From NCBI GenBank assembly GCA_963813075.1, contig CAWEXU010000005.1, forward strand, positions 148,519 through 212,518: 64,000 bases of DNA. The letters run 5' to 3'. This document shows positions 5,964 through 30,667 of the stretch, one piece after another. Both the position numbers and the translations under genes were made by a program. Positions within the stretch are counted from its first letter, which is position 1. Each line of letters opens with the position of its first letter. The stretch comes from Methanotrichaceae archaeon (GTDB lineage Archaea; Halobacteriota; Methanosarcinia; Methanotrichales; Methanotrichaceae). Below the pieces are notes generated by a model that saw only the letters and a program-made list of their open reading frames with translations, was not told the DNA's origin and ran no database searches.

Positions 5964-6203
5964 AGAGAGGAGAAGGGGATCCCCAAAATCCCCATTTTTA
6001 TTTTTGGAGTTAACATTGATTCTGGTGGGGCGTAAAGGAAAGAGAGTTCAGCTCCAGGCATGCAGACATGTCACCTGGTCAGCATAGCGAGCTGGTGCGG
6101 GAGGGAATAAGTCTTTCGAAGCTTGCCGAACATCTGGAAAGATGTCATCCTGCCAAGAAAAATCCTGATAACGGATCTTGCAGGGCTTATCGATTGAATC
6201 TGA

Positions 6204-6500
6204 TCACGCATATCCCAGATTGAAGTCAATAGGCGTGGATTTTGAAGCAAATGAGCTGCCATGCTCCAGAGCATCTTCAGCGATCTTCTTGAGGAGAGTA
6301 GGATAGATCTCCCCACGATATCTATCCTGGCAAATGCGATCTTTCCCTTGAACTCATCGGCATATTTCTCGAAATAGGGCATCATGGCAATACTATGGGG
6401 GCAGGTGGGACTGAAAAACATCACCACTATCGTCTTTCCTTCTTTTTCAACCACCATCTCCCAGTTCAGATCATCGAGTTCAATTATCGATCTACCACTG
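6204..6500 (-). pseudogene. Thioredoxin-family gene with internal deletion and frameshift
   Basis: The N-terminal part IIELDDLNWEMVVEK..VVMFFSPTCPHS..FARIDIV joins out of frame to GEIYPTLLKKIAEDALEHGSSFASKSTPIDFNLGYA*. The cis-Pro (xPT) segment expected between them is absent. Confidence 0.65.
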
Positions 6501-6527
6501 AAGATTTCTCTGATGCTTCAAAGGTCC

Positions 6528-7913
6528 TCAGATCTCTTGATTTGGCCGGACCTTATAGGCTATCCGAATAGTTATCAGACTGATTAAAGAGAGGACGACA
6601 AAGGCAGCCAGGACCTGCTTCATGCTCAGCAGGAATGTTGGATATCTATCCGGAGTTATATTCGTACCCCCGAGATAGATAGCGAATCCGATGCTGACGA
6701 TGGCCATGCTGGTGGAATTTCCAATTAGCCTCATGGTCTCGGCCAGGCTTGACCCCATGGCGTATCTGTCCTTTGATATTGACCCTAAAATTATCTTCAT
6801 CAATGGCGGATAGAAAAATGCCCCGCCTGCGGAGATCGAAATCATCTCAATCAATGCCAGCAGCAGAGGCGTATCGGAGGAGATCAGGGACATGGGCAAT
6901 AGGCCTGCCAGAGATATCATCACCCCCACAGTGGCAAGGAAATAGAGATTCATGCGGTCTGAGAGACGACCGGCATAAATGGTCAGGGCGGCAGTGACCA
7001 GGGTAGGTGCAAGGAGGAGCATTCCTGCTGACCGGGCATCGAATCCTTTGATGTACTGCAGATATAGGCTGAACAGGAAGACAGCTCCCAGGTTGGACGC
7101 AGTATAAAGCATAATGGCCGCATTGGAGAGGGAAAAGCAGCGATTCAGTCGCAAGAGGTTCATATCAATCACGGGATAGCTGATTTTAGATTGACGCATT
7201 ATGTAAAGCGTTAATACTGCCATTCCAGCCAGGATAAGGAGGCCCCCCCTGAGGGAGGGGAGTTCTGTCAGTCCTCGGATGAACAGAAATAGCTGCATTG
7301 CGATCAGTGCGGAGCCCAAACCATCGAACTTTTGTCCTTTGGATAACGCACATTCACCCGGAAGCCTGTAGCGTATCATTAAGGCCACAAAGAGGCTTAT
7401 GGGAAGTGTCAAGAGGAAGATGAACCTCCAGTTAAAGTAGTAAGTTAAGATGCCCCCCAGAAAAAAACCCAGAGCGAAACCGGTGATATTTGAGGCGATG
7501 TTAATGCCCAGAGCCGCACCCCGTTCCCGTTCTGAGAGGGATAGGCTAAGGAGGGCAAAAGAGGTGCCGAAAACCATAGCTGCACCAAGGCCGGTCATAA
7601 AGCGAGCCATGATCAGAATCGGGGCCGATGGGGCAATAGCTGCGAATAGAGCAGATATAAAATAGATGCCAACGCCAATGGAAAAGACCCTCTTGATCCC
7701 GAATATATCTGCTAACCGTCCGAACGGTATCAAAAACATGGATGCGGCCAGAAAGAAGACCGTGGCCAGCCAGCTCATGGCAACGGCGTTCATCCCGAAC
7801 TCAACTCCAATGGTGGGAATGGCTACGGTAAGGGCGGATACCATGAATGGAGCCAGGAACGAGCCGCCGGCGGAGATCACCAGAAGATGCATTTTAGCAG
7901 GAGATGGAGTCAT
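6528..7913 (-). CDS. MFS transporter (DHA2/EmrB-like, about 14 TM)
   Basis: Hydrophobic 461-aa protein with GRLADIFGIKR motif A, ERGAALG and GRLSDR. Confidence 0.9.
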   Translation of the reverse strand: MTPSPAKMHLLVISAGGSFLAPFMVSALTVAIPTIGVEFGMNAVAMSWLATVFFLAASMFLIPFGRLADIFGIKRVFSIGVGIYFISALFAAIAPSAPILIMARFMTGLGAAMVFGTSFALLSLSLSERERGAALGINIASNITGFALGFFLGGILTYYFNWRFIFLLTLPISLFVALMIRYRLPGECALSKGQKFDGLGSALIAMQLFLFIRGLTELPSLRGGLLILAGMAVLTLYIMRQSKISYPVIDMNLLRLNRCFSLSNAAIMLYTASNLGAVFLFSLYLQYIKGFDARSAGMLLLAPTLVTAALTIYAGRLSDRMNLYFLATVGVMISLAGLLPMSLISSDTPLLLALIEMISISAGGAFFYPPLMKIILGSISKDRYAMGSSLAETMRLIGNSTSMAIVSIGFAIYLGGTNITPDRYPTFLLSMKQVLAAFVVLSLISLITIRIAYKVRPNQEI

Positions 7914-8121
7914 GTAATTTCGTATTGACGTTGGCGTCTTCAGAGGATAAATTTTTGCGTTAGATAGATAAACGATCAGGGATTAATATTGATAGGAATT
8001 TGCATACCCGACCCATGTCCACACAAAAACGCATATGGATATAGTATAATTGGGATTGCATCTGCAAGAGACTTAAAGGCATATTGCGGCTTATCCGCTT
8101 AAGAATGGAGGCTTTTCAAAT

Positions 8122-9006
8122 ATGATATATCCTTATCCGCCTGGCCAAGGCACAGTAAAGTGGATCTCAACCGAATGGCTGGCAGATCACATCGAGGACG
8201 ACGATCTGAAGATCCTGGACGTTCAGCCTAATATCCACGATTACATCATGGGCCATATACCCCATGCAGCCTACTTGAATGAAGGCGTCCTCAGATCTGC
8301 CTGGGAGAGTTTGCCGGCTATGTATGTTCCTCCTGAGAGCTTGAAGCCTATTCTGGATCGAGCGGGAGTAGATCCCGATACGCCCACGGTCATTTACTCT
8401 AGCGCCGGACGCTACAGCCACTGCACTGCCGGCATCGGCGACGGCCTGGAGCAGCCCATGATGGCCTATTCCCTGGCTCGATTCGGCCATAAAAAGCTGT
8501 ATATCCTGGACGGCGGGATTGAGAAGTGGTTAGCAGACGGCCATAAGCTGACTAAGGTATACCCTAGATGCATCAAATCCGATTTCACTGTGGACCTCCA
8601 GAGGGAATACTTTGTGACCTATGATCAGTTTCTGGAAATGAAAGACCAGAACACTGTTATGGTCCTTGATGCCCGCCCGGCCGATATCTATGCCCAGGGA
8701 GGGCTCTGGCCAAAGCTCGGCCATATTCCCGGCGCTCTGAGCCTCCCCTGGAGGAGCCTGATGACCAAGGATAACAGCCGCCTCTTGAAGAGCGACATTG
8801 AACTGAAGGAGATCATAGGAAAGTTCGATATCCGCCCAGAGAAGACCCTGATCGTATACTGTGGCACGGGCAGGGAAGCCACCAACGAGTTCCTCATTCT
8901 TAAGTGGTATTTCGGCCATGAAAAAGTCAAGATATTTGAGGGATCGTTTACCGAATGGACGGCTCATCCTGAGAATCCTACGGTAACCGGCACTGAGCCC
9001 CGGTAG
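8122..9006 (+). CDS. Sulfurtransferase (tandem rhodanese, TST/MPST-like)
   Basis: ISTEWL, GHIPHA, ILDGGIEKW, GHIPGA, catalytic loop CGTGRE and FEGSFTEW signature. Confidence 0.92.
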   Translation: MIYPYPPGQGTVKWISTEWLADHIEDDDLKILDVQPNIHDYIMGHIPHAAYLNEGVLRSAWESLPAMYVPPESLKPILDRAGVDPDTPTVIYSSAGRYSHCTAGIGDGLEQPMMAYSLARFGHKKLYILDGGIEKWLADGHKLTKVYPRCIKSDFTVDLQREYFVTYDQFLEMKDQNTVMVLDARPADIYAQGGLWPKLGHIPGALSLPWRSLMTKDNSRLLKSDIELKEIIGKFDIRPEKTLIVYCGTGREATNEFLILKWYFGHEKVKIFEGSFTEWTAHPENPTVTGTEPR

Positions 9007-12401: not shown

Positions 12402-13031
12402 ATGAATAAGGATAATTTGAGTATGAATACTGTGGTTAAGGGCATATTCAGCTTGCTCTTAGCGATAATTACAATATATTCGATCATCCCTCTCTCAGCG
12501 GGGGAAGTCGAAACAGCAACATACTGCGATACGCTTGCCTTCAACAATACAGGCTTATTGGAAAACCACACCATTCCGCTCTTCGATCCGGGCCTTGGCA
12601 ATCTGGTTGGTGTAGACCTGGCCGTAGACCTCGGAGTGGTTCAAACCTACCGCCTTGAGAACGAGGAGAAAGAGGTCCATCAGGTTGGTGCGGAGTCTGA
12701 ATCCATACTTCTGATCACCATGCCAGACGGAAGTTCGATCTCCGCCAATGCCTCCAGCACAGTAAGTGAAGAGCTTGCTGCGTATGATGGTAATACGGAC
12801 TATGAGGGCGCATCCGGAAAGATGGTCGAGGTATCGTCAAAGGGCACTGCTAAAAAGCAGTACCAGGAGCTATCCGATTTCGTCGCCTCATTCCAGAATG
12901 AGACCATCTCCCTCCCTGCGGATATATCCTTCACGAGCTCGACCTCTGGAAGCCTTGTCTTCAGATTATCTACTATCGCTGAGTCCAGAATTTGTGTGAC
13001 TTACACCTATGAGCCAGGTGGCTCAGGTTAA
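12402..13031 (+). CDS. Secreted single-domain protein (choice-of-anchor E-like), paralog of the N-terminal domain of the next gene
   Basis: Signal peptide; FDPGLGNLVGV, MPDGS, TDYEG and ICVTYTYEP match FDPSLGVLTKV, MPDGS, TDFEG and ICVTYYYEP in the 13049 ORF. Confidence 0.75.
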   Translation: MNKDNLSMNTVVKGIFSLLLAIITIYSIIPLSAGEVETATYCDTLAFNNTGLLENHTIPLFDPGLGNLVGVDLAVDLGVVQTYRLENEEKEVHQVGAESESILLITMPDGSSISANASSTVSEELAAYDGNTDYEGASGKMVEVSSKGTAKKQYQELSDFVASFQNETISLPADISFTSSTSGSLVFRLSTIAESRICVTYTYEPGGSG

Positions 13032-13048
13032 AAAAAAGGTGATATAAA

Positions 13049-16000
13049 ATGAAAAAAAATATGATCTTATGGGCAATGCTCATAGGGCTGATATTTTGCC
13101 AGGCGGCATCAGCTCTGAGCTACTCGTCCTGTGCTGTATTCAGCAATACGAGTACAGATTGGCAAAAAACCGAATCCATGGATAAGTTCGATCCAAGCCT
13201 GGGAGTTCTTACAAAGGTCGTTGTGACTGCTGATGCCTGTGCTTCTCAGTCCTTCATAATTGATAGCGAAGACAATTCACCACAATGCTGGAGTGTCACC
13301 TCTGACGCCGTGCTTTCCACGCCAATGCCAGATGGATCGACTCTCGTCCTTGCCCTCCCTGTGCAAGTTCATGATTTCTGTCTAACTGCTGATCAGGAGG
13401 CTGATCCTACAGACTTTGAAGGAACAGACGCGTACAGATTCTTTGTGAAAGACTGTATTGATAGCGAAAAAGAGTTTACAGCGGCTGAGGACCTTCAAGC
13501 ATGGATCGGCCCGGGCAGTGTAAGCTTTACAACCACTGCAGACGGTACTACTGAAATTGACGGATCTGCAAACTTCGACCAGAGGATCCGAACCCATGCC
13601 AATGAAACGATCTGTGTCACCTACTACTACGAACCGTGCAACGATAATAATGCCTGCACCACAGATTCCGTCGTAGACAACAAGTGCGTCTACACTCCAA
13701 TAACCTGCAACGATGGCAATGCCTGCACCGATGACACATGCGATCCAGCTACGGGATGCGTCTTCAATCCCATAAGCTGCAACGACAATAACGCCTGCAC
13801 TGCAGACTCCTGTGACCCAGCAACCGGCTGTGTCAATACGGACATAACTGCAACCTGCAACGACAATGATGCCTGCACTGCAGACTCCTGCGACCCAACC
13901 ACTGGCTGTGTCAATACGGACATAACTGCAACCTGCAACGACAATGATGCCTGCACTGCAGACTCCTGCGACCCAGCAACCGGCTGTGTCAATACGGACA
14001 TAACTGCAACCTGCAACGACAATAACGCCTGCACCGCAGACTCCTGCGACCCAACCACTGGCTGTGTCAATACGGACATAACTGCAACCTGCAACGACAA
14101 TGATGCCTGCACTGCAGACTCCTGCGACCCGGCAACCGGCTGTGTCAATACGGACATAACTGCAACCTGCAACGACAATGATGCCTGCACTGCAGACTCC
14201 TGTGACCCAGCAACCGGCTGTGTCAATACGGACATAACTGCAACCTGCAACGACAATGATGCCTGCACTGCAGACTCCTGCGACCCGGCAACCGGCTGTG
14301 TCAATACGGACATAACTGCAACCTGCAACGACAATGATGCCTGCACCGCAGACTCCTGCGACCCAACCACTGGCTGTGTCAATACGGACATAACTGCAAC
14401 CTGCAACGACAATAACGCCTGCACTGCAGACTCCTGTGACCCAACCACTGGCTGTGTCAATACGGACATAACTGCAACCTGCAACGACAATGATGCCTGC
14501 ACCGCAGACTCCTGCGACCCGGCAACCGGCTGTGTCAATACGGACATTAGCGCAACCTGCAACGATGGCAATGCCTGCACCGCCGACTCCTGTGACCCAG
14601 CTACCGGCTGTGTAAACACTCTGATAGTATGTGATGATGGCAATGCTTGCACCGCAGACACCTGCGACCCGGCAACTGGTTGTGTTTACACTCCAATAGT
14701 GTGCGATGACAGCAATGCCTGCACCACTGATGAGTGCGTCAACGGCGAATGCGTCTTCACTCCAGTAGTGTGCGATGACAGCAATGCCTGCACCACCGAT
14801 GAGTGCGTCAACGGCGAATGCGTCTACACCCCAGTAGTGTGCGATGACAGCAATGCCTGCACCACCGATGAGTGCGTCAACGGCGAATGCGTCTACACCC
14901 CAATAGTGTGCGATGACGGCAATGCCTGCACCACCGATGAGTGCGTCAACGGCCAGTGTGTCTACACACCAATCGTGTGCACCGACAATAATGCCTGCAC
15001 CACCGATGAGTGCGTCAACGGCGAATGCGTCTTCACTCCAGTAGTGTGCGATGACAGCAATGCCTGCACCACTGATGAGTGCGTCAACGGCGAATGCGTC
15101 TTCACTCCAGTAGTGTGCGATGACGGCAATGCCTGCACCACCGATGAGTGCGTCAACGGACAGTGTGTCTACACACCAATCGTGTGCACCGACAATAATG
15201 CCTGCACCACCGATGAGTGCGTCAACGGCGAATGCGTCTTCACTCCAGTAGTGTGCGATGACAGCAATGCCTGCACCACTGATGAGTGCGTCAACGGCGA
15301 ATGCGTCTTCACTCCAGTAGTGTGCGATGACAGCAATGCCTGCACCACCGATGAGTGCGTCAACGGCGAATGCGTCTTCACTCCAGTAGTGTGCGATGAC
15401 AGCAATGCCTGCACCACCGATGAGTGCGTCAACGGCGAATGCGTCTTCACTCCAGTAGTGTGCGATGACAGCAATGCCTGCACCACCGATGAGTGCGAGA
15501 ACGGCGAATGCGTCTTCACTCCAATAGACTGCGATGACGGCGATGACTGCACAACTGACGAGTGCGCCAACGGCGCGTGCGTCAACACTCCAATAGACTG
15601 CAATGACGGCGATGACTGCACAACTGACGAGTGCGTCAACGGCGCGTGCGTCTACACACCACTGGAATGCGATGATGGGGATGATTGTACCACCGATAGC
15701 TGTGCAAACGGCCAATGTGTCTACACTCCAATCGTGTGCAATGACAATAATCCCTGCACCACCGATGCCTGTGTCAACGGCGAATGCGTCTACACACCCA
15801 TAACAAACTGCAATTGCCCGCCCGTATGCCCCTGGTTTATCAAGAATGAGTTGTATGGAGCCTCCTGCACAGAAGTAAAGGTGGTTTCTGCAAGCGAGGG
15901 ACTTCTGGCAAATGACCATAAAGGCGTTGCAGTACTGGATCCTGAATTAATAACCATAGATCCGAAGTACGGAACTCTTGAGGTCCACGAGGATGGGTCC

Positions 16001-16132
16001 TTCATCTACGATCCGACTGGAGCCACAGGCCTGTATTCCGGCCTTTATGTGCAATTCAAGTACAAGGCAACAAGCGAATACTGCGAAGCCAAGTACCCAG
16101 GAATTGCCAAGATCCAGATTCGGTGCAAGTGA
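13049..16132 (+). CDS. Secreted cysteine-rich repeat protein (choice-of-anchor E-like domain, 30 four-Cys CTxDxC repeats, C-terminal Ig/cadherin-like domain)
   Basis: Signal peptide MKKNMILWAMLIGLIFCQAASA; repeats CxDxxACTxDxC..C resembling the Dicty_CTDC type; C-terminal GLLAND..YGTLEVHEDGSFIY. Confidence 0.88.
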   Translation: MKKNMILWAMLIGLIFCQAASALSYSSCAVFSNTSTDWQKTESMDKFDPSLGVLTKVVVTADACASQSFIIDSEDNSPQCWSVTSDAVLSTPMPDGSTLVLALPVQVHDFCLTADQEADPTDFEGTDAYRFFVKDCIDSEKEFTAAEDLQAWIGPGSVSFTTTADGTTEIDGSANFDQRIRTHANETICVTYYYEPCNDNNACTTDSVVDNKCVYTPITCNDGNACTDDTCDPATGCVFNPISCNDNNACTADSCDPATGCVNTDITATCNDNDACTADSCDPTTGCVNTDITATCNDNDACTADSCDPATGCVNTDITATCNDNNACTADSCDPTTGCVNTDITATCNDNDACTADSCDPATGCVNTDITATCNDNDACTADSCDPATGCVNTDITATCNDNDACTADSCDPATGCVNTDITATCNDNDACTADSCDPTTGCVNTDITATCNDNNACTADSCDPTTGCVNTDITATCNDNDACTADSCDPATGCVNTDISATCNDGNACTADSCDPATGCVNTLIVCDDGNACTADTCDPATGCVYTPIVCDDSNACTTDECVNGECVFTPVVCDDSNACTTDECVNGECVYTPVVCDDSNACTTDECVNGECVYTPIVCDDGNACTTDECVNGQCVYTPIVCTDNNACTTDECVNGECVFTPVVCDDSNACTTDECVNGECVFTPVVCDDGNACTTDECVNGQCVYTPIVCTDNNACTTDECVNGECVFTPVVCDDSNACTTDECVNGECVFTPVVCDDSNACTTDECVNGECVFTPVVCDDSNACTTDECVNGECVFTPVVCDDSNACTTDECENGECVFTPIDCDDGDDCTTDECANGACVNTPIDCNDGDDCTTDECVNGACVYTPLECDDGDDCTTDSCANGQCVYTPIVCNDNNPCTTDACVNGECVYTPITNCNCPPVCPWFIKNELYGASCTEVKVVSASEGLLANDHKGVAVLDPELITIDPKYGTLEVHEDGSFIYDPTGATGLYSGLYVQFKYKATSEYCEAKYPGIAKIQIRCK
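13778..14557 (+). repeat. Coding tandem repeat, 10 x 78 bp (CNDNDACTADSCDPATGCVNTDITAT)
   Basis: Near-identical 78-bp units counted directly from DNA and translation. Confidence 0.95.
14702..15805 (+). repeat. Coding tandem repeat, 16 x 69 bp (CDDSNACTTDECVNGECVFTPVV)
   Basis: 69-bp units; the last four are diverged. Confidence 0.95.
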
Positions 16133-16137
16133 AAAAT

Positions 16138-16166
16138 AAAGGGCTAAAAACCCTTTTCTTTTTTTA
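16138..16166 (+). terminator. Probable terminator (short hairpin plus T-run)
   Basis: aaaggg..cccttt followed by a T-rich tract directly after the 16132 stop. Confidence 0.55.
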
Positions 16167-16306
16167 TAGAACAAATACGTGCCCCTGATATTTCTTCTAT
16201 AAGTGCAAAAAAAACAGCCTGGATGTAGATTTTGGATGAGCGGTCCATCGATAGCTTGAACAGGCTAGATATTTAAAAAAGTAAAAATATTCTAAACTTT
16301 CAGGAT

Positions 16307-16651
16307 CTATTTTACTGTAATGGTTACAGGATCGCTGTAAATGATCTCTCCGGTAGTTGCATAATTTTCATCGAGCATGATGATCCGGCATTCAATCTCA
16401 TAGATCCCTGCTCCAGGTGGATGCCAGTTGCTGTTCTTGTTAAGTTCTCCATCGATATAGGTCCTAACCCTGAAATCGCTATTTCCATTATCATCAATAA
16501 CATGGGATCTGATCGGAATTTTCAAGCTCTCGGTCAAATTAAATGAATCTCCGTCTTTCGGAGAAGTGATCCCTATGTCTATCGCCGATGTGGTTCCGAT
16601 GATTGCAAATAATGCAATCAATAGCGCGGCAGTAATTCTCATCTTCCTCAC
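16307..16651 (-). CDS. Small secreted hypothetical protein, Ig-like beta pattern
   Basis: Signal peptide; ITSPKDGDSF..YIDG..GAGIYEI..SDPVTITV resembles bacterial Ig-like domains. Confidence 0.65.
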   Translation of the reverse strand: MRKMRITAALLIALFAIIGTTSAIDIGITSPKDGDSFNLTESLKIPIRSHVIDDNGNSDFRVRTYIDGELNKNSNWHPPGAGIYEIECRIIMLDENYATTGEIIYSDPVTITVK

Positions 16652-17027
16652 CTTAAAGTTTCCTTAGAAGTACTTAATATCAGTATTTGTTATAAGTACT
16701 TAACGACAGTACTATAAGTATTTTTACAGACTTAAAAAAATGGTATCTCTTAACGGGCTCTGATTTTCACTCCTGTATCTTCCAATGGCTCAAGGAGGAA
16801 ATTTCAGCTCTAAAAAGCTAAAATCAGATAAGAAACAAAGGCAGAGACCGATTTGGGCGGATCAAGGGGATCGCGACACCGAGGCCCGCGTGATTTCCAA
16901 ATTTCCGGAGAAGAGTGCATTCACCTTCAGCACGTACCCTTGCCCCTTATGATGTCGAAATTCCCTATCCGCCTAAATGCCCTTTAGTGCGCGAGGGCTC
17001 AACCTTCATGCTGTATCCAATGCCGCC

Positions 17028-17522
17028 TCATTGGTAGGCGACAGCGCTGGTATTAAGTCCGGGATTTTTCAACTTTAGCCTATCTACAATGTATTTTTTC
17101 GATGCAAAGCCCCCCATCCTATCGACCAGGGTCCCATTCAGAAAGACCAGGAGCGTAGGATAGCTGGTTATGTTATAGTCCCGCTCAATCGACTGGTTGA
17201 GGCTTCCATCAATCATTCCAATGGCTGCCTGGCTGCCCAGCTCAATAGATAGCTCATTGACGGCTTGCTTCATTCTCTGGCAGGGATTGCATAGCGGCTT
17301 GTAGACATCCAGGACGAAGAAGGGATAGAGCGCTATGGTCTCGTTCACAGTGCTGTCGTTCAGCTCCAGGACGATGCCGCTGCTCGCCTCTGCATCCGCT
17401 GCCGGTGTGGATGGAGCGGCCGAGGCGGCCCAGGATAGGGCCAGCAGAGCACACAATAGAGCATATATAACCGGATAGATCTGGCGTATTTCTGGCGGGC
17501 TATGCATCCATCTGATCTGCAT
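17028..17522 (-). CDS. Exported thioredoxin-family protein (CNPC)
   Basis: Hydrophobic signal segment; LELNDSTV..LDVYKPLCNPCQRM..YNITSYPTLLVFLNG. Start codon uncertain. Confidence 0.85.
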   Translation of the reverse strand: MQIRWMHSPPEIRQIYPVIYALLCALLALSWAASAAPSTPAADAEASSGIVLELNDSTVNETIALYPFFVLDVYKPLCNPCQRMKQAVNELSIELGSQAAIGMIDGSLNQSIERDYNITSYPTLLVFLNGTLVDRMGGFASKKYIVDRLKLKNPGLNTSAVAYQ

Positions 17523-17569
17523 GAGTTGTCTCTGTCTGAACTTGTCCTCCTCCTCTTCTTCCTTTTCCT

Positions 17570-19150
17570 TTAGCTGGAAAACATCGATGCCGCCCGGCTC
17601 CCGTTCAACTTCATAGAGCAGAAGGAGGGCTCCTGTTCGAATCCGCAGCATAAAAGCTCCTTTACCGCTTCAGGGCTGCGAGCATTGGTGTCATTGGTGG
17701 CGAAGTTTGCCTCCCTGACGATCTCGCCGTTCATGAGCATGGTGGGCGATCCTGATATCTGGAACTGGCCTGCCAGATCGAAGTCCTCCTGGGCATAGGC
17801 CAGTCCCCGGGCGGAGTCGTTGGTGCAGGCGTCAAGCTCCTTGAGGTTAATGGATACCGATTCGAGGCACTCTGCCGTCTTGCCTTCTTTCATGTAGCAG
17901 CGCACATAATCCCAGTACCTGTCAGCCTGCTCCTCCCGGATGCAAATCTGGCGCAGGTTCTCCTGGGCCTCCACCTCGCCGTGCATGGCCATTATGGTAT
18001 TGTTCGGGGCATCCACCGAGCCGATGTACATCACCTTCAAGAACTCTTCTGTCTCCTCTGCATCACTGATGATATCACTCAAGATCCTTTGCATCTGCAG
18101 GCCAAAGGGACACCTGGATACCACGAAAGCCTGGAGGAGAGGCTGGTCTGATTTGGTCATATTAGCGCAGACCTGCTCTGGTGTCAGTCTGGGCGGAGCC
18201 GGAGGGAGGGCTATTTTGCTGGTGTCAAGATTGGGGGCTATCTCTTTCAGCTTTGCAGCCACAGTTTTCTTGTCTTGAATACCTCTCATTCTTCCCGCCA
18301 GCTTGCCGTCCTTGAATATGAGCGTGGTGGGCGCAGCGGTGATATTGTATTTGTTTCTGGTATCGTGGTTGGGCCGGATATCTACCAATGCAAAGGCTGC
18401 CTGGCCCTGAAGCTCTCTGGCCAGCTCGGATATGGTTACATTGTACAGCCGGCAAAAGCCACAGGAATCCATGACTCCGACCAGCACCAGCACAGGCTGA
18501 TACTGAGAGATGGCTGCATCAATGGTCTTGTCTGTGATCAGCATGGCCTGGGATGGATTTTTTGGTCCCGGCTCGATCAGCTCTATGGCCACTCCAGAAG
18601 GCTGATTGGCGGCAGCCGAACCGGCGACAGCTTCGGTTTTTTCCGTGGTCGGGTCACTTGGCGGTAGCACGACCCTGCTGGCATCCAGTTCTGGCTGGAG
18701 CTCTTCCAGCTCCTCCAATAGAGCTGATTTGCTGATATTGCCTCTCATCCTGCTGACTAAAACCCCTTCCTGGAAGAAGAGGAGTGTTGGGAATGCTGAA
18801 ATCTTGTAGTCCTGGACGGTGTTTTTATTCTCACTGCTCCTGGCGTTCATCCTGCCGAACTGAACCTGGCCTCCCAGCTCCTCGGACAGCTCTGAGGTGG
18901 TTTTGTTCATGAGCTGGCATGGGCCGCAGCCAGGATAATAGAAGTCCAGGACAAATAGGGTGCTGCTGTTCTGGATTAATTCGAAGCTCTTATCGGTCAG
19001 ATCCTGAGGACCCGGCAGCGATTCTGAAAATGTTGAGTTGTTGGATGAATTTGAATCCTCAGAAGAAGTTAATCTCAGGGCGGCAGCAGATACCAGCAGG
19101 ATGGCAACGAGAGCAATAATGGCAATTTGGGTGCTCTTCGAGAGAGGCAT
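17570..19150 (-). CDS. Membrane-anchored/exported multi-thioredoxin protein (Trx CGPC + Trx CGFC + GILT/DsbA-like domain)
   Basis: N-terminal hydrophobic helix; DFYYPGCGPC..AFPT; CGFC..AAPT; C-terminal FVVSRCPFG..MHGEVEAQENLRQIC..ISGSPT; several N-x-S/T sequons. Confidence 0.88.
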   Translation of the reverse strand: MPLSKSTQIAIIALVAILLVSAAALRLTSSEDSNSSNNSTFSESLPGPQDLTDKSFELIQNSSTLFVLDFYYPGCGPCQLMNKTTSELSEELGGQVQFGRMNARSSENKNTVQDYKISAFPTLLFFQEGVLVSRMRGNISKSALLEELEELQPELDASRVVLPPSDPTTEKTEAVAGSAAANQPSGVAIELIEPGPKNPSQAMLITDKTIDAAISQYQPVLVLVGVMDSCGFCRLYNVTISELARELQGQAAFALVDIRPNHDTRNKYNITAAPTTLIFKDGKLAGRMRGIQDKKTVAAKLKEIAPNLDTSKIALPPAPPRLTPEQVCANMTKSDQPLLQAFVVSRCPFGLQMQRILSDIISDAEETEEFLKVMYIGSVDAPNNTIMAMHGEVEAQENLRQICIREEQADRYWDYVRCYMKEGKTAECLESVSINLKELDACTNDSARGLAYAQEDFDLAGQFQISGSPTMLMNGEIVREANFATNDTNARSPEAVKELLCCGFEQEPSFCSMKLNGSRAASMFSS

Positions 19151-19164
19151 AGTGATAAGTGAGC

Positions 19165-19190
19165 ATACGGATATATTAGCGTTTTCTTAC
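19165..19190 (-). promoter_or_regulatory. Probable BRE/TATA promoter, conserved in front of both multi-thioredoxin paralogs
   Basis: Minus-strand gaaaacGCTAATATAT lies about 20-30 nt before the ATG at 19150. The same GCTAATATAT occurs at 25921-25930 before the ATG at 25898. Confidence 0.5.
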
Positions 19191-19549
19191 CATTCTGGCT
19201 GGCAGGAATCGCGAAGGTTCTCTTCGTTGCGCTTTTAGAAACTTAAATCTTAATAGTTATCAATACCATTTCTGGCTCACAGATATTGTGAAAGTAATTT
19301 GCCATGGCGACTCATTCTAGTTTGCACATCGTTCAGTCAATTTGATCGAATCCTTGATGCTGGCTCATGATAGTAATCAATTATAAGATCTGATTTTCAT
19401 TTAAATAAAGTTCTTACAAAATGTGCTTCTATCTTTAAGAATCGGGATCTATCTAGATAATTACATCTATTGATCCCGGCAAAATCTGAATTTGGGGGTC
19501 GGGATGAGAGGAAGAAGCAAAAATCTGTTAATGTATTAGGTGGGATGAT

Positions 19550-22500
19550 ATGAAAAATGAAATCTTGATAAAAGGAGATCCAAAATGCACTCGCATAAGA
19601 TCTCCGGAAACTAAATACCGAAATCATTTAAGGAATCATGTGGTGACTATTTTCATCATTTTGGCGGCTATCAGTCTTCTGGCAGTCAGCCCGGCAATGG
19701 GGCAGGCTGTCCAGGCCAGCTCATCCGGCATCTGGACCGATGTAGATGGCGGCAGATATATTTCAGGACTTGACACCAATGTGGTTCGCTGGGGTCTAGG
19801 TCAGGATGGACAGAGCGGATTGCGCTTTGATGGACTGCCTGTCAGCTCCACTTTCGGGCAGGAGTTCTGTCTGGGAAAGCTTACCCATTACAACTACCCA
19901 ATTAGTTATGCGGCTAGCAGGAGCTACATTACAGGTCACAATGCACTTCACGAATCCCTCATTAGGCGATGTCTACTTCACATATGATATGGCCATTGAT
20001 GAAACGGCCAACAGCGGCGATTGTGACGATTGCGCATATAGCCCATGCTCCGTTCCGTGTCCAGACAAAATAACCTGGCCTGCGACCCCCCCGGCAGATC
20101 AGAACTTTACCATCGGTAGTGATACATACACCCTGCAAATAGTGGGTATCAAGGATGCATGTGAAGGCGGATCTTCGCTTCCATACTTTATAACCCAAGA
20201 ATACAAGAATAACGTTGGATATCTTGTGGGAAGAATCGTTCTAACCAGCAGACCTGATGCAATCGACGACTTCTACAGCACAAAGACGAATATGCCCTTA
20301 ACTGTGGCAGCTCCAGGTGTGCTTGGAAACGATTTTGAAAAGAGTGGATTGGATCTTGATGTCGTTAGTTACACACAGCCTGCACACGGTACAGTCACAG
20401 TAGACCTCGAAACCGGATCGATGACTTATACTCCCAATGCAGACTTCTGTGGTACAGATACCTTCACCTATGAGATAACGAATGGCCAGGGCAAGTTCGA
20501 CGAAGCCACAGTGACAATCACAGTTGTCTGCGACGATAACAACAAATGCACAATTGATGCCTGCGTCGATGGTATATGCACCCATACGGAAGTAAACTGC
20601 GACGATGGCAATATCTGTACCGACGATAGCTGCGATCCAGCTACAGGCGAATGCATCCATGAGGATAACACCGCACCATGCGACGACGGCAACGCCTGTA
20701 CCGAGAATGATGTCTGTGTTGAAGGGGAATGTACTGCAGGCACACCTCTGACCTGCAATAATGGACTGTTCTGCGATGGCCTAGAGACCTGCGATGCAAT
20801 CAATGGTTGCCAGGATGGAGCTGATCCGTTAGTAGATGATGGCGTAGCCTGTACCGACGACTCATGCGATGAGACAGCTGACAAAGTTGTGCACACACCG
20901 GTCGATTCTCGCTGCTCGGACGATGATGTCTGTAACGGCATCGAGACATGCGATCCAGCAACTGGCTGTACAAACCCAGACGATTTGGTCTGCAATAATG
21001 GACTGTTCTGCGATGGCCTAGAGACCTGCGATGCAATCAATGGTTGCCAGGATGGAGCTGATCCGTTAGTAGATGATGGCGTAGCCTGTACCGACGACTC
21101 ATGCGATGAGACAGCTGACAAAGTTGTGCACACACCGGTCGATTCTCGCTGCTCGGACGATGATGTCTGTAACGGCATCGAGACATGCGATCCAGCAACT
21201 GGCTGTACAAACCCGGATGATCTGGTCTGCAATAATGGACTGTTCTGCGATGGCCTAGAGACCTGCGATGCAATCAATGGTTGCCAGGATGGAGCTGATC
21301 CGTTAGTAGATGATGGCGTAGCCTGTACCGACGACTCATGCGATGAGACAGCTGACAAAGTTGTGCACACACCGGTCGATTCTCGCTGCTCGGACGATGA
21401 TGTCTGTAACGGCATCGAGACATGCGATCCAGCAACTGGCTGTACAAACCCGGATGATCTGGTCTGCAATAATGGACTGTTCTGCGATGGCCTAGAGACC
21501 TGCGATGCAATCAATGGTTGCCAGGATGGAGCTGATCCGTTAGTAGATGATGGCGTAGCCTGTACCGACGACTCATGCGATGAGACAGCTGACAAAGTTG
21601 TGCACACACCGGTCGATTCTCGCTGCTCGGACGATGATGTCTGTAACGGCATCGAGACATGCGATCCAGCAACTGGCTGTACAAACCCAGACGATCTGGT
21701 CTGCAATAATGGACTGTTCTGCGATGGCCTAGAGACCTGCGATGCAATCAATGGTTGCCAGGATGGAGCTGATCCGTTAGTAGATGATGGCGTAGCCTGT
21801 ACCGACGACTCATGCGATGAGACAGCTGACAAAGTTGTGCACACACCGGTCGATTCTCGCTGCTCGGACGATGATGTCTGTAACGGCATCGAGACATGCG
21901 ATCCAGCAACTGGCTGTACAAACCCAGACGATCTGGTCTGCAATAATGGACTGTTCTGCGATGGCCTAGAGACCTGCGATGCAATCAATGGTTGCCAGGA
22001 TGGAGCTGATCCGTTAGTAGATGATGGCGTAGCCTGTACCGACGATTCATGCGACGAGACAGCTGACAAAGTTGTGCACACACCGGTCGATTCTCGCTGC
22101 TCGGACGATGATGTCTGTAACGGCATCGAGACATGCGATCCAGCAACTGGCTGTACAAACCCAGATGATCTGGTCTGCAATAATGGACTGTTCTGCGATG
22201 GCCTAGAGACCTGCGATGCAATCAATGGTTGCCAGGATGGAGCTGATCCGTTAGTAGATGATGGCGTAGCCTGTACCGACGACTCATGCGATGAGACAGC
22301 TGACAAAGTTGTGCACACACCGGTCGATTCTCGCTGCTCGGACGATGATGTCTGTAACGGCATCGAGACATGCGATCCAGCAACTGGCTGTACAAACCCA
22401 GACGATCTGGTCTGCAATAATGGACTGTTCTGCGATGGCCTAGAGACCTGCGATGCAATCAATGGTTGCCAGGATGGAGCTGATCCGTTAGTAGATGATG

Positions 22501-23859
22501 GCGTAGCCTGTACCGACGACTCATGCGATGAGACAGACTGACAAAGTTGTGCACACACCGGTCGATTCTCGCTGCTCGGACGATGATGTCTGTAACGGCA
22601 TCGAGACATGCGATCCAGCAACTGGCTGTACAAACCCAGACGATCTGGTCTGCAATAATGGACTGTTCTGTGATGGCCTAGAGACCTGCGATGCAATCAA
22701 TGGTTGCCAGGATGGAGCTGATCCGTTAGTAGATGATGGCGTAGCCTGTACCGACGATTCATGCGACGAAGAAAACGACGTAGTTGTGCACGCACCAAAC
22801 GACGGCTTATGCTCGAACAATGACGTCTGTGACGGTATCGAGACCTGCGATCCAGTCGCTGGCTGCCAGCCAGGCACACCTCTGACCTGCGATAACGGTC
22901 TGTTCTGCGATGGTCTGGAAAGCTGCGATCCAGTCGATGGCTGCCTGCCCGGAACCGCTCCGAACTGCGATGACGGCGTAGCCTGTACCACGGACTCCTG
23001 CAACGAGGATGCGGACAGCTGCGATAATGTTGCCGACGACACAAAATGCGATGATAGTGATGCCTGCACTATAGACACCTGTGATGCAGAGCTAGGCTGT
23101 CAGCATGAAGATGTAATCTGCGATGACCGCAATCTCTGCACCACTGATGAGTGCGTTGACGGCGCCTGTGTCTACACGCCCGTAGACTGCGATGACGGCG
23201 ACACCTGCACCGCAGACAGCTGCGACCCAGCAACAGGTGACTGCATCAACACCCCCATAAACTGCAACTGTCCGGAGGCAGAGGATGACGAGTTCGGCCT
23301 GATTTATACCAGCACCTGCAGCCCCCTGGCCATCTCCATATCTGATGGCGTTCTGACAAACGACTTCGACCTTGATGAAGACGACCTTACGGTAGAGCTT
23401 CTGGAGGGGCCAAGCCACGGCACTCTCACCCTGAATCCCGATGGCTCTTTCACCTACAAGCCTGCTCGGGGCTTTATCGGCATAGATAGCTTCACCTACC
23501 GGGCCTTTGACGGAGAGTGCTACTCCGAGCCGGCGACGGTTACGATCTATGTGGCCAAATGCCCCTGGTTCATCAAGAATGAGCTGTATTCGGCAGCCTG
23601 TGGAGCAGATAAGGTAGTTGCGGCAAGCGAAGGGCTTCTGGCCAATGATGCTACCGCGATTGCAATTGTGAATCCAGAACTGATCACAATTGATCCTCAG
23701 TACGGAACTATAGACGTTGCTGAAGATGGCTCATTTGTCTACCATGCGGCCGAGAGCATCACTTCAGGCACATATGTGCAGTTCAAGTACACTGCAACCA
23801 ATGGAGTCTGCGAGGCCAAGTATCAGGGAATCGCCAAGATACAGGTAGTATGCTCGTGA
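19550..23859 (+). CDS. Giant secreted cysteine-rich repeat protein of about 1435 aa (choice-of-anchor K-like domain, Ig-like domains, 79-aa repeats); two +1 frameshifts
   Basis: ORFs 19550, 19806 and 22528 join into one protein when single extra A bases near 19915 and 22537 are removed. Signal segment; LGKLTHYNYPI..IDETAN; PGVLGND..HGTVTV..GTDTFTY; C-terminus paralogous to the 13049 protein. Confidence 0.85.
20754..22770 (+). repeat. Coding tandem repeat, about 8.5 x 237 bp, almost identical copies
   Basis: Units start at 20754, 20991, 21228, 21465, 21702, 21939, 22176, 22413 and 22651 (the last shifted +1 by the indel). Confidence 0.95.
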
Positions 23860-23863
23860 GAGC

Positions 23864-23894
23864 AGAAAGGACCTGGGTCCTTTCTTCTTTTTTT
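23864..23894 (+). terminator. Hairpin terminator
   Basis: AGAAAGGACC-tg-GGTCCTTTCT inverted repeat followed by a T-run, 5 nt after the stop. Confidence 0.7.
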
Positions 23895-24313
23895 GCAGGG
23901 AAGATTCTATTATGGCTGATAGCTGTTTTTGGTATCCGTCGACTTGGCATTCTGAGTGGGTAACGGATCATGAGTTCTATCAGTGACATGTTCTCCGTGC
24001 GCTCTGTGTCTCCAGCCTGAAAAACTCGGTTAACGCATACTGTTTTTTCATGCCTTGGGGATCACAAAAGTTCACAGAGTGCGTGCAGAGACGAACTAAA
24101 ACGGCCAAAAACATAGTAACCTGATTTTAGCCCACAAGAAACAGAACCGCGAAGAGCTTTTTAGACTCTGTTATTAATATTAAGCTAAAAATTGAACGAA
24201 AAAAGAGGATACGCACAGGATTCTGCAAGGGGCTATGGGGGATTAGTCCCACCCCCTGCAGTCTGCTGGTCAGAAAGCCAGCAGATCTCCTATAGATAAA
24301 TCGTCCGATGAGA

Positions 24314-25898
24314 TTATTTGTCCGAGAACATCGTCTCCGACCGGCTTTCATTCAGTTCCCTCGAGCAGAACGATGGCTCCTCTTTGAATCCGCAGCATAA
24401 GAGGTCCTTCACCGCTTCAGGACTGCGTGCGTTAGTGTCATTGGTGGCGAAGTGGGACTCTCTGACGATCTCGCCGTTCATGAGCATGGTGGGCGAGCTG
24501 GTTATCTTGAAGCTGGTCGTCAGATCGAAGTCCTCCTGGGCATAGGCCAGGCCGCGGGCGGAGTCGTTGGTGCAGGCGTCAAGCTCCTTTTGGTTAATGG
24601 AGACCGATTCGAGGCACTCTGCTGTATTGCCTTCCTTCATATAGCAACGCACATAATCCCAGTACCTGTCAGTCTGCTCCTCCCGGATGCATATCTGGCG
24701 CAGGTTCTCCTGGGCCTCCACCTCGCCGTGCATGGCCCTAATGGTGTTGTTTTCGGGGTCCACCTCGCCGATGTACATCACCTTCAGGTATTCTTCTGTC
24801 TCCTGTGCATCGCTGATGATATCCGCCATGATCCTTTGCATCTGCAGACCGAAGGGACACCGGGATACCACGAAGGCCTGGAGGAGAGGCTGGTCTGACT
24901 TGTTCATCTTGATACAGGCCTCTTCTGGTGTCAGCTTGAGCTGGGCGAGTGGGAGGGACACATTGCTCAAGTTCAGGCCGGGCTCTATCTCCTTCAGCCT
25001 TGCCACAATGGTAGCCTTATCCTTGTTGCCCTGCACAATTCCCGAGAACTCGCCGTCCTTGAAAATGAGGGTGGCGGGAATGCCGGTGATGTTGTATTTC
25101 TCTCTGGTCTGGACGTTAAGCCTGGTGTCTATCAAACCCAGGGCCATCTGCCCATTGAGCTCTCCGGCCAGTTCCGAAATTGTGTCATTGAACAGCTCAC
25201 AGTAAGGGCAGGGATTGGTGAATCCCACTACCACCAGCAATGGCTGGTACTGAGAGATGGCTGAATCTATGTTCTTGTCTGTGATCAGCATGGCCTGAGA
25301 TGAATTGCTTATCCCTGGCCCGATAAGCTCTATGGCCCCTCCTTGAGGCCGATTGGCTGAAGCGGAGCCAGCGACAGCTTCGGTTTTTTCCTTTGTCCGG
25401 TTAATTGGCGGGAGCTCTACCCGGCTTAGCATCCAGTTCTGGCTGGAGTTCTTTTAGCTCATCCAGGAGATCTGATTTGCTGATATTGCCTTTCATCCTG
25501 CTGACCAGAACCCCTTCCTGGAAGAAAAGGAGTGTGGGGAAGGATGAAATCTTGTAGTCCCGGACGGTGTTTCTGCTCTCTCCGCTCCTGGCGTTAATCC
25601 TGCCGAACTGGACCTGCCCATGAAGTTCATTTTCCAGCTCTAATATGGTATTATTCATGAATTGGCATGGGCCGCACCCTGGATAATAGAAGTCCAGGAC
25701 GAACATGGAGCTGTTGTTCAGCATGGATGCCATCTTCAGATCAGTCAGTTCCATTGGATCTTTGATCTGATCTGCAATAGTTGCGGGGGGTAATGATTTT
25801 GACTCCTCTGCAGGGAGGAATCTCAACACCGTTGCAGATATCAGCAGTAGGGCAATCAAGGCGATTATGCCAATTTTGTGGCTCCTCAGGAGAGGCAT
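24314..25898 (-). CDS. Second multi-thioredoxin protein (Trx CGPC + Trx CPYC + GILT/DsbA-like), one frameshift near 25430
   Basis: ORFs 25401-25898 and 24314-25432 together are colinear with the 17570-19150 protein; extra base in gat gct (a)agc cgg. Confidence 0.85.
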
Positions 25899-26040
25899 AC
25901 TGTCACATGAGTACCTGCGAATATATTAGCATTTCCAGTGAGGCATCCATTAAATCAAAAATAGTTAAAAATGCATCACGTGCTATGTTATCGATTTTCT
26001 TGAATATTATATCAAAAAAGCTGAATTGACAGGATCAGGA

Positions 26041-26101
26041 ATATACCAATACCAGGATTATACCATGAGTATACCATGAGTATACCAGGAATATACCAGA
26101 A
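26041..26101. repeat. Intergenic 11-bp-period TATACCA array
   Basis: TATACCA at 26059, 26070, 26081 and 26092; AATACCA in register at 26048; a further TATACCA at 26042. Confidence 0.8.
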
Positions 26102-26202
26102 GGACTTAATCCAGCAAATCGCCTTTTGATGAGGATTTCTTTAATATCAAACTCAATAATCACTGTAGAATAGATTTTCGCAACAGAGGACACCGGGAAG
26201 CT

Positions 26203-26472
26203 CTAATTTTCGTCTTCTTTTGGATTCTCTCCGGCATTGAGTATGGTGCATATCTCTGTAAGACACAATAGCATCTTTTCGCCAGATGGGGTGATCTTGT
26301 ATAACTTTTCATCTTTTATCAAATAGCCATTCTCAGTCAGCCAGTTGAGATATGCGCCAGCGTTTTTGAAGTTGAGGTTGATCTGATAGACTATCCTTGT
26401 TTTGCTCGCACCATTCTTCCCGCAGAGATTCAGAATGCTGCTCAGCACCTCCAACCTGGTCCGCCTTGCCAT
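26203..26472 (-). CDS. Small winged-helix transcription regulator (archaeal HTH_45-like)
   Basis: RRTRLEVLSSIL..GASKTRIVYQINLNF..YLNWL..YKITPSG pattern. Confidence 0.85.
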   Translation of the reverse strand: MARRTRLEVLSSILNLCGKNGASKTRIVYQINLNFKNAGAYLNWLTENGYLIKDEKLYKITPSGEKMLLCLTEICTILNAGENPKEDEN

Positions 26473-28048: not shown

Positions 28049-28963
28049 TCATCTCTTGGCCTTGAACTTTTCTCCTGTGATCATCTCGAACAGCCGGATG
28101 TAAATCAGGCTGGTCTCTTTGATCACATCATCAGGAAGGGCAGGTATTGCAGGCTCCGCTTGCCCCTGTTCCCTGGCCTGATATAGAAGGTCTTTGTAGC
28201 CCGTCTGCCGATAGTACTGGCGCACATACTCCTTGGAGAGGTCCACCAGTTCGCCTTCCTCGTAGCGCTTTTTATCCCAGAACCGGTCCTCGTCTGCTGT
28301 TCCATAGACATCGACTACCATTATATTCCGATCAGCATCGAAGGCAAGCTCTTTTTTGCCGTCTGCATGGATCAGGCCGCGGCTGGCAACGCTCCGGTTG
28401 ATATCCTCATCGATCTTAAGGACGATCTCCCGAGCATCCTCATACTCCTTAGGCGTCAGGCCGGATATCTCTAGAGCCTCTTCCTTCTTCAATAGGCGGT
28501 CGGTCTTTTCCAGTTTGGTAGAGACCTCCAGAAAGGGTTCGGGCAGAAGCTCGCCGGATCGGACGGTATGCCCGGAGGGAAAACCCAGATCCTGGGCGGT
28601 TATATCTCCCGATTCCACCCGGTCGAAGAGAGAGCCGGCCACATACCAGCGGCAGATCCATTCCAGGGGAATGAGATAGTTCCTGGATTGGGGGGTGATT
28701 TTAGACGAGGGGATTATCTCCACTTTGTGGCAGAGCATGCCGGCTGGCGGCAGATACTGCAGAAAGTGGGTCTTGATTCCCATTCTCTTCGCCCGATCAA
28801 ACCAGTAGACGCCCTCCCGGCTGAGGGTCTCTCCTTTGAAGGGAATAATGGAAGGAATTATCTTATCGAAGACGGAGATATTGTCGGTAAACTGAAACTC
28901 CAGTCGGTCGCCCAGGTCGTATGCCTCTTTGACCTTGCCTTTCATCAGAAGCGTGCGTTCCAT
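28049..28963 (-). CDS. purC: SAICAR synthetase
   Basis: GKVKEAY, TDNISVFD, IPFKGE, IPLEWICRWYVAGS, DGKKE, DEDRFW, LSKEYVR. Confidence 0.95.
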   Translation of the reverse strand: MERTLLMKGKVKEAYDLGDRLEFQFTDNISVFDKIIPSIIPFKGETLSREGVYWFDRAKRMGIKTHFLQYLPPAGMLCHKVEIIPSSKITPQSRNYLIPLEWICRWYVAGSLFDRVESGDITAQDLGFPSGHTVRSGELLPEPFLEVSTKLEKTDRLLKKEEALEISGLTPKEYEDAREIVLKIDEDINRSVASRGLIHADGKKELAFDADRNIMVVDVYGTADEDRFWDKKRYEEGELVDLSKEYVRQYYRQTGYKDLLYQAREQGQAEPAIPALPDDVIKETSLIYIRLFEMITGEKFKAKR

Positions 28964-29032
28964 TGCAGGAGATGTCTCCGGCAAGATAATAATCCTTTGC
29001 TTTTCGGGGAAAAAAGAGATGAGGGAAAGGAC

Positions 29033-30667
<1,635 letters not shown>

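Follow-up and report, generated by a model that had tools for sequence, protein, structure and literature searches.

Introduction

Splitting the sheath hoops of Methanospirillum and Methanothrix takes reducing agents, and disulfides are presumed to link the hoops (PMC6242892, PMC10593813), and the core of the archaeal sheath (SH) protein has been described as two six-stranded antiparallel sheets found in archaea only (PMC11576556). Medvedeva et al. list DsbD together with a signal-peptide thioredoxin, there labelled DsbB, in 13 of 13 Methanotrichales (PMC11576556), and in Methanosarcina a thioredoxin gene lies upstream of ccdA (PMC6262447). CcdA and DsbD hold isomerases reduced (PMC5403849), and the CTDC family of Dictyostelium comprises secreted matrix and signal proteins (PMC4931340). 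We analysed a stretch of 64,000 nucleotides from a Methanotrichaceae archaeon (contig CAWEXU010000005.1, positions 148,519 to 212,518; hereafter the window), in which genes for cysteine-rich secreted proteins stand beside genes for exported oxidoreductases built of two thioredoxin (Trx) domains and a third domain resembling GILT (gamma-interferon-inducible lysosomal thiol reductase), referred to as the multi-thioredoxin enzymes.

Among the methanogens that use acetate in anaerobic digesters and granules, Methanothrix is one of the main ones. Its sheath depends on disulfides, and the chemistry that makes them without DsbB or VKOR is the question that the locus addresses. McCarver et al. (2017) reportedly described membrane-associated thioredoxins of M. 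acetivorans, one of them disulfide-forming, which may bear on novelty. In the literature searched, with subscription papers outside its scope, neither archaeal CTDC proteins nor a Trx-Trx-GILT fusion are described, and nor is a linkage between the two; the locus is real, conserved in part of the genus and apparently undescribed. Behind an earlier reading of the stretch (the original prediction) stands the premise that surface disulfides would be unexpected in methanogens, which is overstated, given that sheath disulfides and the DsbD and thioredoxin pair are published (PMC6242892, PMC11576556).

Results

The analysis suggests, with about even confidence, that the multi-thioredoxin enzyme serves as an accessory membrane-anchored isomerase or proofreader of the PDI/DsbC type for disulfide-stapled stalks, and not as a dedicated oxidase. 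The Trx-Trx-GILT/DsbA-like protein of the original prediction (oxidoreductase 1) was borne out, except that its third domain carries CPFG rather than CxxC. Both of its Trx domains match solved thioredoxins (Z ~19, root-mean-square deviation ~1 Å over ~104 residues). Across all 22 aligned homologs, both CxxC motifs, the CPFG cysteine, three cis-Pro positions and eight further third-domain cysteines are invariant, with CGPC present in 20. The commonest CxxC motifs among 115 homologs are CGPC (64) and CGYC (45), the latter being the DsbC motif, and second-domain motifs include CPYC and CEHC. Named homologs of the protein belong to Methanothrix and Methanotrichaceae.

The third domain matches GILT (PF03227) at 24.8 and 27.9 bits against a cut-off of 22.4, with an atlas GILT feature of 0.93-0.95, and matches DSBA marginally (26.9 versus 25.6 bits). 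Canonical GILT has an active-site CxxC plus a CQHGx2ECx2Nx4C signature. This signature is absent here: CPFG and MHGEVEAQENLRQIC were found, the resolving cysteine and two signature cysteines are missing, and CP[FY]G accounts for 291 of the 301 motifs counted. PDI itself is marked by CGHC and an a-b-b'-a' layout; oxidoreductase 1 does place at least two CxxC thioredoxin-fold domains in one predicted-exported protein, but lacks that layout and motif (its motifs being CGPC/CGFC/CPFG) and falls below the PDI cut-offs of TIGR01130 (50.4 versus 344 bits) and TIGR01126 (64.9 versus 107 bits). The DsbC N-terminal dimerisation domain gave no Pfam match in the enzyme at E 0.01. The best Foldseek matches are ERdj5, ERp72, a QSOX oxidoreductase fragment and PDI, at a template-modelling score (TM) of ~0.2 and thus at domain level only, and a sequence search of solved structures with the GILT-like domain returned 0 matches.

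The GILT-like domain belongs to an uncharacterised family of 1564 representatives at E up to 0.001, with clusters from DPANN/CPR among those in the atlas. Its nearest relatives outside Methanothrix are stand-alone membrane proteins, one of them from Ca. Aenigmarchaeota at 52% identity, and 2 of the 48 long homologs scanned, among 150 matches listed, carry a fused FKBP prolyl isomerase. The predicted export of the enzyme is in keeping with its hydrophobic N-terminal helix and with 2.3 sequons per 100 residues in oxidoreductase 1, against 0.40 in predicted cytoplasmic and 1.46 in predicted exported proteins; the 115 homologs average 2.36 and 10 of them carry lipobox-like motifs. Because of this sequon density and these motifs, the enzymes are read as outward-facing, and, as judged from sequence, they are likely membrane-anchored outside the cell.

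The candidate clients are rich in cysteine. Cys-rich protein 1 has the 1027 residues originally predicted; of its supposed 30 four-cysteine repeats with 120 cysteines, 29 are full CTxDxC repeats and the first is degenerate with three, giving 119. All 28 repeat-to-repeat intervals hold four cysteines, as do 21 of 21 in the paralog on contig C4, and the protein matches Dicty_CTDC (PF00526) in 28 stretches with 599 bits (E 4e-185) against a 27-bit cut-off. In Cys-rich protein 2 the predicted 10 cysteines per 79-residue unit were recovered, the motif that starts the unit occurring 10 times; its ~1435-residue length holds after two bases are discounted, the gene being three open reading frames (ORFs) as assembled. 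Heads match NF033208 (choice-of-anchor E) and NF038131. In P0276, a shorter homolog, the first repeat likewise has three cysteines, and the mature cysteine counts are odd (131 in Cys-rich protein 1, 57 in P0276); the spare first-repeat cysteine could make an intermolecular link, for instance to the sheath.

Within 15 distinct head domains, cysteines are gained or lost as nested pairs (28-189, 64-136, 80-111) in 13, the two exceptions being one with a shifted cysteine and one domain with a single cysteine. This is the pattern expected of structural disulfides, and it is the strongest sign that the client cysteines may be oxidised, in line with the disulfide-bonded substrates that had been proposed. 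Highly improbable is the alternative that, in a reducing habitat, the cysteines of the repeats are thiolate ligands for metal (Zn, Fe, Ni) or for sulfur, held in the reduced state by the enzyme. The composition of the 24-residue, four-cysteine repeats (16.5% Cys, 15.7% Asp, 10.7% Asn, no Lys/Arg) would suit it, as would an oxidant pathway that was not found and partners that are reducing (see below), but the nested head pairs, the occurrence of the same repeat family in secreted Dictyostelium matrix proteins (PMC4931340) and the modelling of the repeats as beta-hairpins with no CxxC knuckles argue otherwise.

That modelling comes from an AlphaFold prediction of P0276 (mean pLDDT 76), which builds the head from long beta-strands, gives every repeat one beta-hairpin and is less confident for the C-terminal domain. 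Its top Foldseek match is the Cys-rich heavy chain of the Entamoeba Gal/GalNAc lectin (E 4e-6, TM 0.12), followed by jelly-roll capsids and PNGase; a fold assignment from these matches was dropped as too weak. Compared with the archaeal SH protein, the modelled head has ~8 long strands and matches a bacterial choice-of-anchor family, and no sheath protein is among the matches listed. Solved structures gave 0 sequence matches to the CTDC repeats, and the atlas placed the head domain in unnamed clusters only, all <0.9. The Cys-rich proteins showed neither a transmembrane nor a PEP-CTERM-type tail. Their C-terminal CPWF domain, which recurs at about eight other places in the source genome, is a candidate anchor and may be a Methanothrix anchoring module. 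Secreted Cys-rich relatives that share these building blocks (choice-of-anchor E, SdrD_B, Big_9, N- or C-terminal CPWF) lie at L065:8455-16172, L066:584-14057 and L068:1366-6769 on contigs C30 and C31 of the source genome (labels denote genomes, G; loci, L; contigs, C; contigs from other public runs, X; and proteins, P; G000 is the source genome). CTDC repeats occur in 46 of 59 genus genomes and, outside the genus, in 3 of the 300 phylum genomes compared. An adhesion role is plausible as far as sequence goes.

The association of enzyme and client was assessed across the genus. The GILT-like domain was matched in 8 of the 59 genomes, at 11 loci, and a Cys-rich secreted gene lies within 2 kb at six (two here, G022 site 1, G028, G032 and G079), or at 4 of 9 when G000 is excluded, against a chance level of ~1% (19 of 1981 called genes of G000 lie that near a CTDC ORF). 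The adjacency comes in divergent, convergent and tandem layouts. In a midpoint-rooted tree, adjacent copies fall into two subclades of the main clade and the G028 copy into a separate clade (AU test, p 0.04, post hoc and marginal), which therefore points to two or three semi-independent associations. Ten metagenome loci show adjacency in three; two of the ten repeat the G027 loci and five are under 5 kb. The number of CTDC matches is higher in enzyme carriers than in non-carriers (Mann-Whitney p 0.019; 0.051 without G000), with kinship and assembly or read type as confounders, and the three genomes with the most matches (83, 44, 24) are all carriers. Thus, the linkage is real but loose.

Several observations weigh against the isomerase reading. 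Five of the 11 enzyme loci have no Cys-rich neighbour (G022 site 2, G027 twice, G030, G077), one of them lying beside a gene that we take to be arsenite-methyltransferase-like. The GILT-like domain was unmatched in 39 of the 46 CTDC-positive genomes, near-complete G005, G019 and G026 included; the co-occurrence foreseen by the original prediction is borne out to that extent only, its synteny by the 6 of 11 loci. Of 400 other phylum genomes, 8 carry stand-alone GILT-like homologs, and at all 10 of the loci concerned a Cys-rich neighbour is absent; one of these loci adjoins a Trx-CcdA fusion. CGPC is also the canonical reductase motif, isomerase and reductase not being readable from motifs, and the coupling of the enzyme to CcdA is putative. 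Finally, the fraction of proteins with an even cysteine count is 0.45 in 221 predicted exported proteins and 0.49 in cytoplasmic ones, under a crude signal-peptide rule and in an error-prone assembly; this lack of bias either counts against genome-wide oxidative folding or fails to detect it.

Part of this evidence would suit an unlikely alternative, in which the enzyme acts generally in the envelope, as a reductase or in repair under oxidative or metalloid stress, and is adjacent to Cys-rich genes since both accumulate at variable surface-gene sites, for example near the thermosome gene. Besides the five loci with no such neighbour, it is favoured by the thermosome/RLI-like site, where G079, G027 and G030 all keep the enzyme but only G079 has the Cys-rich gene, by other enzyme neighbours (ArsR, rhodanese, CcdA and the ArsM-like gene) and by the naming of GILT in Pfam as a reductase family. 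The recurrence of adjacency in G028, whose copy has another domain order and falls in a clade of its own, speaks against it, as does the presence of the enzyme in all three of the most CTDC-rich genomes, within the confounding stated above.

The dedicated substrate-plus-foldase cassettes originally proposed did not hold up, and the idea that each enzyme folds strictly its own neighbour is very unlikely. The window does contain two enzymes and two substrates, and the divergent arrangement of oxidoreductase 1 and Cys-rich gene 2 is kept in G022, L029 and L036. This head-to-head pair (ending at 19150 on the minus strand and starting at 19550 on the plus strand) is better conserved than the tail-to-tail pair first taken as the unit. 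However, in G022 a single enzyme gene is flanked by two substrates while the other copy has none, the large CTDC genes on C4, C10 and C30 of G000 have no thioredoxin neighbour, and the two enzymes of the window are sisters in the tree and therefore of recent duplication. At 20 other CTDC loci, no thioredoxin or CcdA match was seen in ~9 kb of flank where the contig allowed, a control that is biased low through the omission of G000 loci and of CTDC loci already known to flank the enzyme. Exported thioredoxins that are related to the enzyme but have no GILT-like domain occur in G008, G019, G026, G027 and G030; none stands beside a CTDC gene at the seven loci inspected.

The absence of a DsbB or VKOR electron sink, first noted for the window, extends to the family: VKOR (PF07884) and DsbB (PF02600) were each matched in 0 of 105 family genomes, a set in which 64 reach a completeness of 90% or more, with positive controls matched and a divergent oxidase liable to escape. 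The proposed search for partners was productive in the reducing direction, G000 giving 9 matches to PF02683 (CcdA/DsbD_TM); the two membrane cysteines are present in the four full-length proteins inspected, and the genes form pairs of exported thioredoxin with redoxin-CcdA, or Trx-CcdA fusions. In G027 (contig C80), the multi-thioredoxin enzyme stands directly behind such a pair, and an exported thioredoxin of the CcdA-linked type is present in 57 of 59 genus genomes. Since the membrane partners are CcdA-type, an isomerase or reductase is favoured over an oxidase. Erv/ALR gave 0 matches in 5 genomes, where no control matched either, so that this search is uninformative. Pairs of exported thioredoxin and redoxin-CcdA also occur at L062:1039-4961, L061 and L018, within what are presumably arsenic-type clusters (putative ArsR-, permease-, ArsC- and ArsM-like genes).

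Quite unlikely, in our estimate, is that the enzyme is instead the primary oxidase (DsbA/MdbA-like), with electrons leaving it for a membrane acceptor that has escaped recognition, or going straight to sulfane sulfur or O2, possibly via exported rhodaneses with a CxxC loop. Such a role would agree with DsbB and VKOR not being found though the substrates look disulfide-rich, with the DSBA/GILT match of the third domain and with CPYC and CEHC among second-domain motifs. It would also agree with the eight tandem-rhodanese proteins inspected in G000, most of which have signal-like N-termini and several of which lie beside CcdA-thioredoxin genes, and a review cites PspE, a rhodanese, as partly substituting with DsbC for DsbA/DsbB (PMC5403849). 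Against it, the enzyme is missing from most CTDC-bearing genomes and hence cannot be the main oxidase of the genus, the DsbA-like domain has no second cysteine in 291 of the 301 motifs counted, and the membrane partners are of the reducing CcdA type. All eight rhodaneses have no canonical cysteine in domain 2, and the rhodanese as oxidant was demoted to a lead. Six of them have an unusual domain-1 CxxC loop, GECxPCGxGPS. Tandem rhodaneses with this loop are located at L059:967-3596, L064:4272-7209, L063:4403-5230 and L065:1252-2262 (contigs C22, C16 and C30 of G000), three near Trx-CcdA fusions.

The coordinates of the features are collected in Table 1. G000, a Methanothrix metagenome-assembled genome (2.71 Mb, 31 contigs, 82.8% complete), is an error-prone assembly, as a frame change in 10 of 68 conserved control genes indicates, and the predicted double occurrence of the Cys-rich/oxidoreductase unit has to be read with this in mind: unit 1 is intact, and unit 2 is frame-broken as assembled. 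Cys-rich gene 2 comprises three ORFs (19550-19987, 19806-22541, 22528-23859) and oxidoreductase 2 two (25401-25898, 24314-25432). Among the indels listed, contigs from independent runs have one base fewer at 19916 (X2, X15), 22539 (X7) and 25427 (X5, X2), and discounting these bases gives open frames of 1435 and 527 codons. The three single-base insertions are probably assembly errors and the stitched proteins, though reconstructions, probably right. The break at 25427 is less certain as an error and may be a real broken allele, as four other runs span the site with no deletion among the indels listed. RNA-library contigs X15, X16 and X19 span parts of both Cys-rich genes and both enzymes and are not informative on transcription, strand or level.

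Table 1. Features of the locus, in positions of the window
Feature	Coordinates	Strand	Content or basis
Choice-of-anchor E protein, stand-alone, secreted, 209 residues, one Cys pair	12402..13031	+	NF033208, E 5.9e-20
Cys-rich secreted protein 1, 1027 residues, 132 Cys	13049..16132	+	Signal peptide, choice-of-anchor E beta-sandwich head, 30 CTDC-type repeats, C-terminal 'CPWF' Ig-like domain
Small secreted protein, 114 residues	16307..16651	-	Syntenic in G022, L029, L036
Single exported thioredoxin, CNPC, signal peptide from internal Met	17028..17651	-	PF00085; 6 sequons
Oxidoreductase 1, 526 residues	17570..19150	-	N-terminal membrane anchor, Trx(CGPC), Trx(CGFC), GILT-like domain (CPFG and 8 invariant Cys)
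Spacer, 399 bp, AT-rich, between the divergent oxidoreductase 1 and Cys-rich 2 genes	19151..19549	.	Sequence
Cys-rich secreted protein 2, 1435 residues, 138 Cys if the 19916 and 22539 insertions are errors	19550..23859	+	Choice-of-anchor K head, Big_9, CTDC repeats and 79-residue 10-Cys units, Big_9, CPWF domain
Oxidoreductase 2, 527 residues if base 25427 is an error	24314..25898	-	Trx(CGPC)-Trx(CPYC)-GILT-like(CPFG)
Winged-helix-like ORF (putative), 88 residues	26206..26472	-	ORF call

The genes around the main pair are partly conserved. The stand-alone choice-of-anchor E protein is 27% identical to the head of Cys-rich protein 1, of which it is a paralog, and its gene is kept upstream of Cys-rich gene 1 in G022, G032 and L029. 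The third exported thioredoxin, with CNPC, is present as predicted; its gene overlaps the end of the oxidoreductase 1 gene, which makes co-transcription likely, and follows the multi-thioredoxin gene in G022 site 2, G032, L029, L034, L035 and L036. Of the predicted small secreted Ig-like protein, the secreted ORF stands; it gave no Pfam or NCBIfam match, and the Ig-like label is that of the original prediction. The 88-residue ORF taken for a winged-helix regulator is there as well; its label, carried over from the original prediction and suggested by a motif, is presumptive, and a role in regulating the locus is conjectural. The spacer between the divergent genes appears to be a shared promoter region, and no regulatory motif was seen in five spacers, where repeats are short and mostly two-copy. 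Upstream of oxidoreductase 2, five to six tandem 11-nt repeats lie at 26036-26103; contigs of three runs pass over the 155 bp (25997-26151) in which these repeats are embedded.

Farther out, the multi-thioredoxin locus lies 3-7 kb from a thermosome gene in G000, G022, G030 and G079 (window 28049-30667; L012, L022, L026), usually with purC and a lipoprotein gene alongside. Another thioredoxin-like ORF (6074-6517, minus strand) has a CPHS motif and no signal peptide and is apparently frameshifted. Sulfur and redox genes lie upstream at 2905-9006, namely a lactamase-rhodanese fusion, a secreted cupredoxin-GSDH fusion, an MFS transporter and a tandem rhodanese.

Discussion

In the reading proposed above, folding of the clients would take place extracellularly: up to ~65 disulfides would form, and the beta-hairpins would line up in a long chain holding the head away from the cell or sheath. 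Near-identical repeats would mispair easily, and the CGPC/CxxC domains could then break wrong bonds, with the single-cysteine GILT-like domain (CPFG) holding the substrate as a mixed disulfide or acting as a binding platform. Reducing equivalents might come from the intact CcdA/DsbD-type membrane proteins of G000. Because neither DsbB nor VKOR was found, net bond formation would take a non-canonical route: the oxidant could be trace O2, polysulfide or a small disulfide, or a membrane oxidase could have gone unrecognised. The enzyme would be a patchy booster over a genus-wide exported-thioredoxin/CcdA system, repeatedly kept beside heavy Cys-rich clients and tied to none.

A broader picture, speculative and on balance unlikely, would have eukaryote-style oxidative folding without a known oxidase at the Methanothrix surface, where disulfide stalk proteins of the Dictyostelium type would have expanded genus-wide. 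In some lineages, a GILT-like monothiol domain of DPANN/CPR type would have been fused to thioredoxins at least twice, yielding an archaeal PDI analogue for the longest stalks. Bond formation would use an anaerobic oxidant that has yet to be described, perhaps sulfane sulfur delivered by exported rhodaneses with a CxxC loop and a coupling to CcdA. Most of the upside lies in this missing oxidant. The locus offers a reporter substrate, with its many predicted disulfides in identical repeats, together with a candidate catalyst, so that the making and proofreading of extracellular disulfides by a strict anaerobe becomes directly testable. If the isomerase reading is true, it would give a first function to the large family of membrane-anchored GILT-like proteins, and the locus points to a genus-wide family of candidate adhesins.

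The theme of an exported isomerase with Cys-rich clients is already known, and the locus is a variant of it. With the endoplasmic reticulum PDI family (PDI, ERp72, ERdj5) and the QSOX module, the enzyme shares several thioredoxin domains per predicted-exported chain, CxxC motifs and cis-Pro loops; it differs in its motifs (CGPC, a variable CxxC and CPFG), in the lack of b-b' domains, in the GILT-like third domain and in being membrane-anchored. Bacterial DsbC/DsbG or ScsC with DsbD/CcdA/ScsB resemble it as predicted-exported thiol-disulfide oxidoreductases with CcdA-type donors in the genome, and CGYC/CPYC are common among its homologs, whereas the enzyme has tandem domains in one chain and no match to a dimerisation domain, and a DsbA/DsbB pair was not found.

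Sheathed methanogens have the published pair of DsbD and thioredoxin (PMC11576556), and Methanosarcina has a thioredoxin linked to CcdA (PMC6262447); they are of the same order, with extracytoplasmic thiol exchange proposed on behalf of surface disulfides. The published pair, which we infer to be the CcdA-linked pair of the 57 genomes, is core, single-domain and unlinked to clients, whereas the enzyme of this locus has several domains, a GILT-like one among them, occurs patchily (8 of 59) and is often beside Cys-rich genes. GILT and its uncharacterised DPANN/CPR homologs share the Pfam match, an HG..E...N....C core and structural cysteines, but the enzyme has CPFG in place of CxxC, and in Methanothrix its domain comes joined with between one and three thioredoxin domains, being mostly stand-alone elsewhere. 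On the client side, Dictyostelium EcmA/EcmB/PsiA (PF00526) and bacterial choice-of-anchor E/K proteins share, respectively, the same 24-residue four-cysteine repeat in a secreted protein and the NF033208/NF038131 heads; the proteins described here are archaeal, expanded in a genus-specific manner and end in the Methanothrix 'CPWF' Ig-like domain, with no PEP-CTERM-type tail seen. Taken together, the enzyme is PDI/DsbC-like in its proposed action, yet by its sequence it falls outside PDI, DsbA and canonical GILT.

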